Assembly: GCA_963725665.1 (NCBI GenBank)
Contig: CAVRZA010000004.1
Location: 384,001 to 448,000, forward strand
Length of the DNA stretch: 64,000 bases
From: an uncultured Actinomycetes bacterium
Lineage (GTDB): Bacteria; Actinomycetota; Thermoleophilia; UBA2241
Reading direction: 5' to 3'
The notes under the pieces were generated by a model that did no database searches, had not been told where the DNA came from, and saw only the letters and a program-made list of their open reading frames with translations. Of the stretch, positions 33,834 to 37,267 are shown piece after piece. A program made the position numbers and the translations under genes. The stretch's first letter is position 1, and every line of letters begins with the position of its first letter.

Positions 33834-34001
33834 GCTGCAGGACCTCCAGCTCGTCGCACGGGTGCGCCGCCGTCCCTCGTCGCGGCGCTTCGGGTCACGC
33901 GGACACGAAGGGATCCCGCTGGGCGGAGCGATCGTGTCGCTTCTCCCCGGGAGCATTCGCCCTTGCGTCGCGCCCGTGGTCGCAGTGGTCCGCGGCGGGT
34001 C

Positions 34002-34122
34002 TTGACCGGACGGTCGGTCAACGGGGCAAAGCATAGAACGGTGTCTGGCGCGACGTCAACGACGCGTCGGGTCGTGCTCGGCACGTGGCCCGACGCAGCC
34101 TGTTGCCCGGACGGTCGGTCAA
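34002..34122. promoter_or_regulatory. Twin palindromic operators and divergent promoters
   Basis: TTGACCGGACGGTCGGTCAA (34002-34021) and TTGCCCGGACGGTCGGTCAA (34103-34122); minus-strand TTGACG-N18-TATGCT (34059-34030); plus-strand TAGAAT at 34129. Confidence 0.8.
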
Positions 34123-34172
34123 CGCGTGTAGAATGGCGTGGCTCGCCGCAGACCAGGACGACAGGAGGACGG

Positions 34173-34826
34173 GTGACCGCCAAAGGGCCGCGCGGTGAGT
34201 CGGAGCCGCGGAGGATCTCGCTCGATGACCCCATGGCGACGCTCCCTTCCACGGCGCAGCGCATCCTCGCCGCGGCGCGCGGACTGCTCGAGGTGGACGG
34301 CTTCAGCGCCCTGCGGCTGCAGGCGATCTCGCGGGCGTCTGGCGAGCCAAAGGCGAGCATCGCGTACTACTTCGGCAACAAAGCTGGCCTCGTCGAAGCG
34401 CTCGTCGACTCGTTGATCCACGACGCCAACCTGGCGCTCATCACCGAGACCGAGTTGCTCCCGCTGGGGCAGGAGCGCGTTCATGCGCTCGTCGACGGCG
34501 AGACGCGCATCGTGGCGGACAGCGAGTCGTTTCGCGCCTTCTTCGACGTGCTTCCGCACGTGCTACGCGACGACCGTCTGCGGCCGCGCGTCGCCCGGCT
34601 CTACGACGGCTACCGGGAGACTGTGCTGCGCTGCCTGGGTGCCGGCACCCAGGCAGCGCAGCACAGTCTCCTCCCGCTGGCCATGCTGATGATCGCCATC
34701 GTCGACGGACTGGCCGTCCAGAGAGAGCTCGATCCCGAGCGCGTCGACGTGGCGTCGGCCACGCGGCTCTGGGAGGAGATGATGCAGACGTTCATGGCGC
34801 GCAAGGAGGAGGAGGAATCTCTATGA
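34173..34826 (+). CDS. TetR-family regulator (last three codons supplied by the IS)
   Basis: RILAAARGLL...GFSAL...IAYYFGNKAGL HTH; GGAGG SD before GTG 34173. Confidence 0.92.
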   Translation: MTAKGPRGESEPRRISLDDPMATLPSTAQRILAAARGLLEVDGFSALRLQAISRASGEPKASIAYYFGNKAGLVEALVDSLIHDANLALITETELLPLGQERVHALVDGETRIVADSESFRAFFDVLPHVLRDDRLRPRVARLYDGYRETVLRCLGAGTQAAQHSLLPLAMLMIAIVDGLAVQRELDPERVDVASATRLWEEMMQTFMARKEEEESL

Positions 34827-34831
34827 CGATG

Positions 34832-36004
34832 TCAAGCCGCCGCGGCGGACCTGAACATCGTCTCGTCGCGAAGCATCGCCCAGATGACGTTCACCCGCCG
34901 CCGGGCAAGCGCGATCACGGCTTGGTGATGGCGCTTGCCCTCGGCCCGCTTGCGGTCGTAGAAGGCGCGCGAGGGCGGGCTGCGCAGACTGGCGAAGGCG
35001 GATTGGTAGAAGACCCGCTTAAGGACCTTGTTGCCCCCCTGCATACGGCGCACGTTGCCGCTTCGTTTGCCCGAGTCGCGGGCCACCGGGATGAGGCCGG
35101 CGTAGGCGGCCAGGTGGTCGGCGGAGGCGAAGCTGCTCAGCTCGCCCACCGCCACCAGGAACTCAGCGCCCAGGCGGGGGCCCATGCCCGGCAGGCTCAC
35201 CAGGATCTCCGCCTGGGGGTGGGAGAAAAAACGCCGCTCGAGCTCCTGGTCGAGCCGCGCCAGGCGCTCCTTTGTGGCCAGCACCTCGCTCGCCAGGTCG
35301 GCGACGATCGCGGCGCTCACCTCCTCGGCGGGCAGAGAAACGCTCTGGGCGCCCGCCGCCTTAAGGGCGCTCTCGGCCAGCTTGGCCGCTCCCCGGCAGC
35401 CGCGGGCGCGCAGGTAGGCCTCCAGGCGGCGGGCGCCGGCGCGGCGTACCTCGACCGGCGTGCGGTAGCGCTGCACGAGGAGCAGGGCGCCCTTGGTGGT
35501 GAGGTCCAGGGCGCGCTCCAGGCCGGGGAAGACGCCCACCAGCGCCGCGCGCAGGCGGGTGACGGCCCGTGTCTGGTCTTGAACCAGGTCGCGCCGCCGC
35601 GAGGTCAGCAGGGCCAGCTCGGCCAGCACCGCCTCGCTGGGGCGCAGCTCGGAAAGGTCACGGCGCGTGCGTGCCTGTTCGGCGATGATGCGCGCATCGC
35701 GGGCGTCGGTCTTGGCCTCTCCCCGGTAGGCGTCGCGGGAGCGGTTCACGGCCACGCCCGGCAGGTAGAGCACGCGCTCCTCGCCGCTCCACAGCACGGC
35801 CAGGGCGAGGGCGGCGACGCCGCCGGGGATGTCGAGAGCCCAGGTCGTCTGGCCGGCCTGAGCTCTGGCCTCGGCGATCAGCCGCCGCAGCTCGTCCTCG
35901 TCGTTCTCCACCCGGCGAGAGAAGACGAGGCGTCCCTCCTCATCGATCGCCGCCGCCCAGTGGAAGTCCTTGCCCGCGTCGATGCCCACCCACAGCCCAG
36001 CCAT
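34832..36004 (-). CDS. IS110 recombinase (transposase)
   Basis: WVGIDAGKDFH, ALDI, AKTDARDA (RuvC-like acidic residues); SLPGMG, LAAYAGLIPVARDSGK (serine loop) and ALARR. Confidence 0.96.
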   Translation of the reverse strand: MAGLWVGIDAGKDFHWAAAIDEEGRLVFSRRVENDEDELRRLIAEARAQAGQTTWALDIPGGVAALALAVLWSGEERVLYLPGVAVNRSRDAYRGEAKTDARDARIIAEQARTRRDLSELRPSEAVLAELALLTSRRRDLVQDQTRAVTRLRAALVGVFPGLERALDLTTKGALLLVQRYRTPVEVRRAGARRLEAYLRARGCRGAAKLAESALKAAGAQSVSLPAEEVSAAIVADLASEVLATKERLARLDQELERRFFSHPQAEILVSLPGMGPRLGAEFLVAVGELSSFASADHLAAYAGLIPVARDSGKRSGNVRRMQGGNKVLKRVFYQSAFASLRSPPSRAFYDRKRAEGKRHHQAVIALARRRVNVIWAMLRDETMFRSAAAA

Positions 36005-36039
36005 GGCCACCTCCTCGCTTCCGCCGACCCCTTGCCCGT

Positions 36040-36235
36040 GGAGCACCCCGCCGGCACCTCCCTACACAGCGATCGCTCGCCGATCTCTATCAGCGGTCAG
36101 GGCGTCCAAAGGGGCCGAGGGGCCATTCCTCCCGAGCCATGCGAGCGGCAGAGACATGACAGCCATCCTCGACCCTTCTGGGCGTCCCGGACGCTACCGC
36201 AAAGAGGGCTCACAGCAAAGAATCCGTACGCCACA
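36040..36235 (-). ncRNA. Predicted IS110 bridge RNA (boundaries approximate)
   Basis: Four ordered segments matching the target and the element ends: TCATGTCTC, GGAGGA, ATAGAGAT and GTAGGGA. Confidence 0.72.
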
Positions 36236-36253
36236 GGAGAAAGGTAGGGAGGC

Positions 36254-37267
36254 GTGAAGGCGGCGGTCGTATGGGACCCGGCCTACCTGGAGCACGAGAT
36301 GGGTGGGCACCCGGAGGGAGCCGACAGGCTCTCGCACATCCTCGGCTACCTCGAGGCGAGCGATCTCTGGGCCCGTCTTACGGTGGTGAGCCCGCACGCG
36401 GCGACCATCGACGACCTGCTCGCGGTCCACACGCGCGCCTACGTCGAGATCGTCCGTCAGGCCGCCGCGAGCGGCGGCCGCTGGCTCGACCCCGACACCT
36501 ACGTCTCCCCGCGCAGCTTCGACATCGCCCTGCTGGCCGCCGGAGGAGCGCTCGACGCACTGGGCGGCTTCGAGCTCGGGGAGGCCCGCTTCGCGCTCGT
36601 GCGCCCGCCGGGCCATCACGCGCTCCCCGACCGCGCCATGGGGTTCTGCCTCTTCAACAACATCGCCATCGCCGCGCACCGGCTGCTGGCCGAAGGCCTC
36701 GAGCGCATCGCCATCGTGGACTGGGACGTGCACCACGGCAACGGCACGCAGGCCACCTTCATCGACGAGCCGCGGGTGCTCTTCTTCTCGCTGCACCAGT
36801 GGCCGCTCTACCCGGGCAGTGGGTGGTTCGACGAGTGTGGCGTGGGTGAGGGGGAGGGCTACACCGTCAACGTCCCGCTGCCTCCGGGGAGCCACGACGG
36901 CGACTATGCGAGGGCCTTCGACGAGATCGTCGGACCGATCGTCGATCTCTACCGGCCTCAGGCCGTGCTCGTCTCCGCCGGACAGGATCCGCATGCCGAC
37001 GACCCCTTGGCCAGCATGTCGCTCACCGAGGGCGGGTTCGCCCGGCTGGCCCGTCGCGTGCAGGAGCTCGCGCAGCGCCACTGCGAGGGCCGCCTGGCGC
37101 TGACCCTTGAGGGCGGCTACGAGCGCACAGCGACGGCGCACTCCGTGGCCGCCATCTTGCGCGCGCTTCTCGATGAGGATGCACCTGAGGTGGGGGGCGA
37201 GTCGGGTCGCGCCGCCGCCGCTATCGAGCAGGCCCTCAGCGTGCAGCGGGCCTACTGGGAGGTCTAG
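36254..37267 (+). CDS. Histone-deacetylase-family amidohydrolase
   Basis: HPE, RPPGHHA, GFCLFNN, DWDVHHGNGT, SAGQD and LEGGY. Confidence 0.95.
   Translation: MKAAVVWDPAYLEHEMGGHPEGADRLSHILGYLEASDLWARLTVVSPHAATIDDLLAVHTRAYVEIVRQAAASGGRWLDPDTYVSPRSFDIALLAAGGALDALGGFELGEARFALVRPPGHHALPDRAMGFCLFNNIAIAAHRLLAEGLERIAIVDWDVHHGNGTQATFIDEPRVLFFSLHQWPLYPGSGWFDECGVGEGEGYTVNVPLPPGSHDGDYARAFDEIVGPIVDLYRPQAVLVSAGQDPHADDPLASMSLTEGGFARLARRVQELAQRHCEGRLALTLEGGYERTATAHSVAAILRALLDEDAPEVGGESGRAAAAIEQALSVQRAYWEV

Follow-up and report, generated by a model that had tools for sequence, protein, structure and literature searches.

A candidate bridge RNA that would direct an IS110-family insertion sequence of an uncultured Actinomycetes bacterium to translation-initiation sites

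An insertion sequence (IS) of the IS110 family, found in a 64,000-nucleotide stretch of the genome of an uncultured Actinomycetes bacterium (assembly GCA_963725665.1, contig CAVRZA010000004.1, positions 384,001 to 448,000; hereafter the window), carries in its non-coding end four short segments that are very probably the guides of a bridge RNA specifying a site made of a Shine-Dalgarno (SD) sequence followed by a start codon. Judged by every sequence feature checked, the element is a bridge-RNA system of the IS110 group, of the IS621 type. This reading is carried by sequence matches, by a conserved two-loop structure, by the covariation of guides and flanks among relatives, and by two natural insertions in the same genome. 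In the proposed mechanism, the guides of the first loop would pair with the target and those of the second loop with the two ends of the element itself; the complex of recombinase and RNA would then join the circularised element to the target, exchanging strands at the core dinucleotide TC by a chemistry that we borrow by analogy from IS621. On the host-gene strand the specified target would read GGAG-GA-GAC-AUG-A, an SD sequence and then a start codon, so that the element would be programmed to land between a ribosome-binding site and the start of the gene, and in one orientation only. The pairing itself, and not selection acting later, would choose the insertion site. All coordinates are positions in the window, and the element is read on the minus strand.

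The extent of the element is fixed, because two genomic copies could be compared: besides copy 1, in the window, there is a copy 2 on a different contig of this genome, 100% identical over window positions 36258..34809. The left end (LE) opens with CCTACC at 36248 and the right end (RE) closes with ATAGAGAT at 34817, and a core TC, extendable to TCC, stands at both junctions of both copies. The recombinase contains the Pfam domains DEDD_Tnp_IS110 (PF01548, 1.5e-46) and Transposase_20 (PF02371, 4e-20) and scores 233.9 bits, over a cut-off of 140, against the NCBIfam model NF033542, 'IS110 family RNA-guided transposase'. Upstream of its gene lies a non-coding stretch of about 240 nt, in which the initial annotation had marked four segments on the minus strand, and all four are found exactly where it placed them (Table 1). 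Segment 1, the left target guide (LTG), reads UCAUGUCUC / TCATGTCTC. The flanks of copy 1 are TCACGCC+TC on the left (36257-36249) and TC+CTCC on the right (34816-34811), and here the 7/9 match of segment 1 to the left flank, noticed earlier together with the compatibility of both differences with wobble pairing, was recovered; the pairing is kept in copy 1, since at both differing positions a guide U faces a G on the target's bottom strand. In copy 2 the left flank, TTCATGTC+TC, matches segment 1 at 9/9 positions, and the right flank, TC+CTCCTC, is complementary to segment 2, the right target guide (RTG), at 6/6. The other two segments point to the element itself: segment 3, the left donor guide (LDG), is identical to the RE end at 34824-34817 (8/8), and segment 4, the right donor guide (RDG), whose DNA reads GTAGGGA, is the complement of core plus LE, TC+CCTAC (TCCCTAC at 36250-36244; 7/7). 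Guide polarity and loop order are those of the published IS621 model, as far as it is set out in the relevant passages of PMC11208160. When the 236-nt non-coding end was shuffled 200,000 times, motifs 1 to 4 were seen in 78, 17,160, 82 and 3,761 shuffles, respectively, and all four together in none; the product of the four single-motif frequencies is 2.6e-10, and a four-motif match by chance is excluded.

Both copies lie between a GGAGGA SD and an ATG or GTG, with the transposase and the host gene on opposite strands, and the earlier claim that the guides specify GGAGGA...ATG/GTG is borne out by these positions. On the host-gene strand the site of copy 1 is AAGGAGGAGGAGGAGGC-GTG-AAG, and the reconstructed site of copy 2 is GAGGAGGAGAC-ATG-AAC, in which the ATG opens an ORF (open reading frame) of 148 codons; the corresponding protein of 148 aa has no Pfam or NCBIfam family. 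In the window the IS separates a gene of the histone-deacetylase family from its SD, and the start of this gene at the GTG at 36254 is supported by orthologues that align from residue 1 in 7/7 loci. From the reading of the sequence, the stop TGA of the upstream gene overlapped the GTG of the downstream gene before the insertion, so that the IS would sit in a coupled gene junction.

A side observation concerns the host start after insertion. On the host strand, LE end plus core (36241-36257, and the equivalent positions of relatives) place TAGGGA or TAAGGA directly upstream of the host start; this is a stop fused to an SD-like purine run, and the insertion thus swaps the SD of the host for a similar one.

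The structure of the RNA was examined as a consensus of 19 homologues, and it consists of two modules, in each of which an internal loop separates a lower stem from a capped upper stem. The four segments all lie in internal loops, none of them within a stem; they face each other two by two, target guides in one loop and donor guides in the other, which is the arrangement that a fold had been expected to reveal if the initial annotation was right. In the alignment 93.6% of the paired cells are indeed paired, against 81.6% when the partners are shuffled (0/500 shuffles reach the observed value) and 35.1-54.5% when the partners are slid by 1-3 columns. Furthermore, compensatory changes on both sides occur in 20/32 pairs.

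Relatives were collected by a genome search, their non-coding ends were aligned, and the guides were read from the alignment columns; the ends of each element were set by the donor guides only, and the target guides were then compared with the flanks. Relatives with an identity of 40-55% occur frequently in two families of the same phylum (34/301 and 114/301 genomes). In the aligned non-coding ends the stems are conserved and the loop bases are variable, and the target guides change with the flanks as the donor guides change with the element ends, in agreement with the covariation anticipated earlier. The RTG matches its own core plus right flank at 6/7 or more positions in 15/16 loci, against 3.3% of 240 non-cognate pairs. 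The LTG, scored in any register alike for cognate and non-cognate pairs, matches its own left flank at 8/9 or more positions in 11/17 loci, against 5/272 non-cognate pairs, and in each of these five the two elements share a target or have similar ones. Where cognate LTGs mismatch, 14/27 of the mismatches are wobble-compatible, against 311/1,142 (27%) in non-cognate comparisons. On the donor side, the reverse complement of the RDG gives an exact match of 7-10 nt to its own LE in all 19 listed loci, and the LDG of the relatives matches their own RE end. The core also varies: at the homologous place relatives have TC, GC, AC or CC, matched by their own RTG and RDG. Seventy further relatives give the same picture of covariation.

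Table 1. Features of the IS110-family element and of its surroundings, in window coordinates.
Feature	Position	Strand	Remarks
IS110-family insertion sequence	34817..36248	-	1,432 bp without core; ends from donor guides and flank comparison
Core dinucleotide TC, left junction	36249..36250	-	other core copy at 34815-34816
Recombinase/transposase gene	34832..36007	-	391 aa
Structured core of the bridge RNA	36041..36178	-	consensus fold of 19 homologues mapped to the window
Target-binding module	36178-36109	-	consensus fold
Donor-binding module	36106-36041	-	consensus fold
Left target guide (LTG), UCAUGUC+UC	36151..36159	-	5' side of internal loop 1 (36162-36150)
Right target guide (RTG), GGAG+GA	36127..36132	-	3' side of internal loop 1 (36135-36123)
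Left donor guide (LDG), AUAGAGAU	36083..36090	-	5' side of internal loop 2 (36092-36081)
Right donor guide (RDG), GUAGG+GA	36059..36065	-	3' side of internal loop 2 (36068-36056)
Left target of copy 1, TCACGCC	36251..36257	-	holds CAC, complement of host GTG (36254-36256)
Host Shine-Dalgarno run GGAGGAGGAG	34805..34814	+	continues into core GA 34815-34816; right target on host-gene strand
TTGACA, putative -35, in RE	34830..34835	-	overlaps transposase stop codon; sequence pattern
TACCTT, putative -10 (TAnnnT), in LE	36241..36246	-	sequence pattern
Antisense ORF, 474 codons, spanning the whole element	34823..36247	+	ATG 6 nt inside RE end; TAG at 36245-36247
Upstream host gene, TetR family	33963..34826	+	last codons and stop now in IS end
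Downstream host gene, histone-deacetylase family	36254..37267	+	337 aa; Pfam Hist_deacetyl 4.4e-92

The RNA would probably be made from a promoter assembled at the junction of the circle. If RE were joined to LE, the sequence would become TTGACA-17 nt-TACCTT, in which the 17 nt are composed of 13 nt of RE, the core and CC, and this arrangement fits, by analogy, the junction promoter described for IS621. The same halves recur in the relatives, with TTGA in RE and TAnnnT in LE in 16/16 and the full TTGACA in 10/16.

How general the choice of translation starts may be was measured with a test that requires an SD 4-mer where the element has inserted, followed after 3-12 nt by an ATG or GTG, together with an open frame, and which by construction demands that the transposase strand be opposite to the host gene. 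In a first set, 11/27 distinct sites qualified, against 535/14,377 control positions (3.7%). In a larger set the count was 23/57 distinct sites after quality filtering; loci without both ends or with short flanks had been skipped before the quality check, eight loci (L003, L014, L039, L052, L074, L095, L101 and L102) failed it, and L069 duplicates L068. Start-site targeting is therefore recurrent in the clade but not universal, since 23/57 sites qualify.

Some relatives present a different picture, which we report as an observation apart. In L082, L084, L089, L090, L096, L100, L104-L107 and L110, which belong to one family with genomes of 6-12 Mb, the LTG reads UCAG or UCAA, and the elements are inserted about 5 nt upstream of the TGA with which a long host ORF ends (site ...CTGA...); in most of them the antisense frame, discussed below, is kept open. 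Inspection of L084 by eye suggests a host frame whose final TGA would overlap the antisense ATG. This group resembles a sister of the start-codon class, with stop codons as its target.

Several junctions among the relatives are unusual in other ways. In L003 and L052, which are one site in two genomes, the core is CC at the left junction and GC at the right one, and the guides agree with this, with CC in the left target guide and GC in the right one; such unlike cores may be the trace of a recombination between differing cores. At the right junction of L014, TC comes after RE, and behind it stands the element's own donor-loop DNA in reverse complement (...CGTAAACAGCGACC), so that the element seems to abut an inverted fragment of a bridge-RNA gene; its target guides do not match the flanks, and the case may be one of self-targeting, aimed at the DNA encoding the right donor guide. 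At the right junction of L041, TC+CCTAC, as at the beginning of an LE, comes directly after RE and gives way to unrelated sequence, with a poor RTG match; this arrangement could be what is left of a tandem or junction form, seen in a flank of 148 nt only.

A scan against Rfam matched no bridge-RNA family, and its only strong matches were microRNA models on an unrelated perfect palindrome. This palindrome, of 56 bp, with two arms of 28 nt and no loop, lies at 34616-34671, about 150 bp from the IS, in the 3' part of the TetR-family ORF; besides being the source of the spurious microRNA matches, it yields near-identical peptide stretches from both strands in the list of ORFs.

A number of observations weigh against the bridge-RNA reading and have to be set beside the evidence above. 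As regards the RNA, the minimum-energy fold of the single sequence is no better than that of shuffles (z -0.59 and -0.82) and partly pairs LTG with RTG; no RNA sequencing run was listed with the element sequence, a result that is uninformative on expression; and no circle junction or empty site appeared in DNA contigs from four metagenome runs, where the element is covered in parts by contigs that stop at 34809 and 36252, contain no joints and are thus uninformative on circles and empty sites. As regards the guides, the core TC is covered by LTG, RTG and RDG, but the LDG of the window is followed by CG and does not match it, whereas the published model has the core in all four pairings; the relatives are divided on this point, some with an LDG that matches the core and others with one that does not. 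In a fixed register the LTG reaches 7/9 in only 9/17 loci, a low score that is due to a slip of the register by one base relative to the core in some relatives, and poor left-flank matches are found in L013 (4/9), L015 (5/9), and L014 and L017 (6/9 each). Moreover, the covariation counts overstate the independence of the cases, because the relatives are kin.

Some of these points would suit an explanation at the level of DNA, in which the short matches are features such as subterminal repeats bound by the transposase, and the non-coding end is a mere leader with no guide RNA in it. The donor segments do repeat the ends of the element itself, as protein-binding subterminal repeats would, and both the lack of a listed sequencing run with an RNA match and the unexceptional single-sequence fold would be expected. 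However, the matches of segments 1 and 2 are to host DNA beyond the element, and from one relative to the next the two segments change with the flanks; because both covary with the host flanks, repeats internal to the element cannot account for them. In addition, the compensatory changes in the stems preserve the pairing of an RNA and not a DNA motif, and each guide pair has one sense and one antisense member, as in the RNA model described in the passages of PMC11208160 that deal with the guides. We regard an explanation by DNA features as extremely improbable.

The remaining contrary points concern the occupancy of sites. The genome of the window contains no unoccupied exact copy of the 13-mer target, but 16 unoccupied sites fit the target guides when G:U wobble is allowed, and two of them, on contigs C2 and C8, are identical over 13 nt to the site of copy 1. 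By our own arithmetic about nine wobble-compatible sites are expected from base composition. Pairing alone does not predict occupancy, because these 16 fitting sites are empty; nor does the length of the ORF set them apart from the background, since 40% of random ATG or GTG codons open at least 100 codons. It might then be supposed that the position between SD and start is the product of selection after insertion or of a preference of the protein, and that the likeness of the guides is incidental, the more so as the genome has only two copies and 16 wobble-compatible sites are vacant. The first three bases of the LTG, UCA, are also common to the relatives on TCAG or TCAA sites, and the 'CAU' could be in part a conserved feature of the family. 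In the relatives, though, UCA is a position that is read, since the TCA in their own flanks matches it; the guides match the full site of 13 nt and not merely its composition; and relatives with other target loops occupy correspondingly different sites, which are related neither to an SD nor to a start. An origin of the position in selection or protein preference is, on this evidence, unlikely in the extreme but not quite as far-fetched as the DNA-level explanation, and guides that specify the site are the reading that we retain.

A second feature of the element may be connected with its target. The antisense ORF that spans it occupies the transposase's codon-mirror frame, in which stops come only from the codons TTA, CTA and TCA, and it has no match in Pfam or NCBIfam. 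Its position at the host junctions is exact: as its ATG is 6 nt inside the RE end, the host SD stands 6 nt upstream of it; the new stop of the TetR-family gene, TGA (34824-34826), overlaps the antisense ATG (34823-34825) as ATGA; and the antisense stop TAG comes 6 nt before the host GTG. Of the 13 relatives with an open frame (L004, L011 and 11 of the START class, defined below), seven have an ORF that ends 4 nt inside LE, four have one that ends on a TGA overlapping the host ATG, and two have one that ends about 60 nt inside.

For a comparison across the clade, elements were assigned to the classes START, STOP and OTHER from their host flanks alone (L021 was kept in the class counts with only 17 readable codons), and the codons of the transposase genes that would give antisense stops were counted. 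The START genes have two such codons, against 68 CTT+TCT and 144 other A-ending controls, and 21/23 have none; the OTHER genes have 61, against 84 CTT+TCT and 216 other A-ending controls, and only 4/20 have none; the STOP genes have 12, against 36 CTT+TCT and 85 other A-ending controls, with none in 11/14. On a quick tree the target classes are interspersed; the trees omit L014, L021, L026 and L035, in which the gene is broken or cut, and L052, which shares the site of L003. In independent sister pairs comparing START+STOP with OTHER, about 5.7 pairs link the open frame with the translation-signal class, 0.2 show the reverse and 4.1 are tied (median p 0.031); when only START is set against OTHER, 5.4 pairs are for, 0 against and 3.6 tied (median p 0.0625). 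The open antisense frame goes with the targeting of translation signals, a conclusion that we hold with moderate confidence, as the kin are few, the tree is a quick one and G+C content at third codon positions (GC3) is a partial confounder.

The bridge RNA and the element-long antisense ORF may, in a proposal that we make tentatively and with less than even confidence, evolve in this clade as one device, a 'translational relay'. The guides would set the element on an SD-start junction or, in the family with Streptomyces-sized genomes, a few bases before a TGA stop; host ribosomes would be passed to the antisense ORF by one of two routes, the host SD that lies 6 nt upstream of its ATG or the ATGA overlap with the upstream gene; they would read the whole element and terminate where LE ends, either 6-12 nt short of the host start or on an ATGA that overlaps it; and the interrupted gene could still be translated by re-initiation. 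If this were true, the element would be nearly harmless inside operons, or a protein like the 'hed' product of IS900 would be made only after insertion, or both. It is possible, again short of an even chance, that the antisense ORF is instead a by-product of high G+C and has nothing to do with the choice of the target. The frame is exactly the codon mirror, its stops arise only from the rare codons TTA, CTA and TCA, such frames are often open by accident in G+C-rich DNA, and the ORF is without a family match; the mean GC3 is higher in START (0.86) than in OTHER (0.78), and the tests controlled for phylogeny are weak, with the two median p values given above. G+C is, however, insufficient as an explanation, as START elements with GC3 of 0.83 or less are without antisense-stop codons in 7/8 cases, including L055 at a GC3 of 0.69, and OTHER elements with GC3 of at least 0.84 have at least one such codon in 6/7; the gap between 2 antisense-stop codons in START and 61 in OTHER is found with classes taken from flanks only. 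In the same direction, about 80 non-coding codons are open too, the ORF starts and stops at the extreme ends of the element beside host signals, and in the sister pairs the trait is never clearly reversed (0.0-0.2 pairs).

The significance of the guide reading lies in the case of IS900, which, going by the title of a 1997 article by Doran et al., is said to use translation initiation signals as its target. The parts of the literature that were searched gave no mechanism for target choice of the IS900 type; here, the target loop would pair with both signals, and relatives with other target loops land elsewhere. The link between bridge RNA and IS900 targeting is a direct corollary of the bridge-RNA model of 2024, and the statement that a bridge RNA explains targeting of this type seems to be unwritten in the literature searched: no paper found there joins bridge RNA with IS900, or bridge RNA or seekRNA with IS901, IS902, IS117 or IS1547. 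The main text of PMC11208160 makes no mention of mycobacteria or actinobacteria, and its Supplementary Data 2, with target motifs per guide pair, might list SD-like targets. For a covariation of target class with an open antisense frame no description was found; this association makes the old 'hed' idea testable, and the open frame suggests how an insertion in an operon junction might avoid silencing the downstream gene. As for the distinct programmable recombinase scaffold that the initial annotation foresaw, it is a hope, and what has been established is that the recombinase is remote from IS621; for engineering, the interest is in a bridge recombinase of this kind with many natural target-loop variants to learn from.

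Among the known systems, IS900 of Mycobacterium avium subsp. paratuberculosis, also of the IS110 family, 'targets translation initiation signals' and has an ORF opposite to the transposase, 'hed' (host expression dependent), which spans the whole element, according to the sections of PMC8141618 devoted to it. Translation-start targeting and an element-long antisense ORF are thus common to IS900 and the window element, which are likened here by description, with no IS900 sequence compared; in the account of PMC8141618 hed has no start codon of its own, whereas the antisense ORF of the window has an ATG 6 nt inside the RE end. The seekRNA of IS1111/IS110 elements, as presented in portions of the 2024 paper by Siddiquee et al. 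(PMC11187229), is likewise a short RNA from a non-coding region that selects the target, but in the IS1111 group, in the same portions, the RNA is downstream of the transposase and subterminal inverted repeats are present, whereas the RNA of the window is upstream, as in the IS110 group. ISPpu9 and ISPpu10 of Pseudomonas putida, of the IS110 family, share with the window element the use of one highly specific class of chromosomal target, which in the excerpts describing them consists of repetitive extragenic palindromes or a conserved intergenic sequence and not of translation signals. The closest parallel is IS621 of E. coli. From what selected parts of the 2024 paper by Durrant et al. (PMC11208160) report, the two elements have in common a DEDD/RuvC-like plus Tnp recombinase, a non-coding RNA in the non-coding end upstream, a target loop that comes first and a donor loop that comes second, a core of 2 nt, left guides that are sense to the left arm and right guides complementary to the right arm, and a promoter, putative in the window element, split between a -35 in RE and a -10 in LE. 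They differ in the recombinase, which has 391 aa in the window and 328 aa in IS621 (PDB chain, structures 8wt6 etc.), with only residues 265-385 aligning (phmmer, E 7e-12), the same region that alone aligns, at E about 1e-11, when the window recombinase is compared with the solved IS621 and ISCro4 proteins. They differ also in the core, which is TC in the window and CT in IS621 and is not covered by the LDG of the window, and in the target, which is a repeated extragenic sequence for IS621 and a translation-initiation region for the window element.

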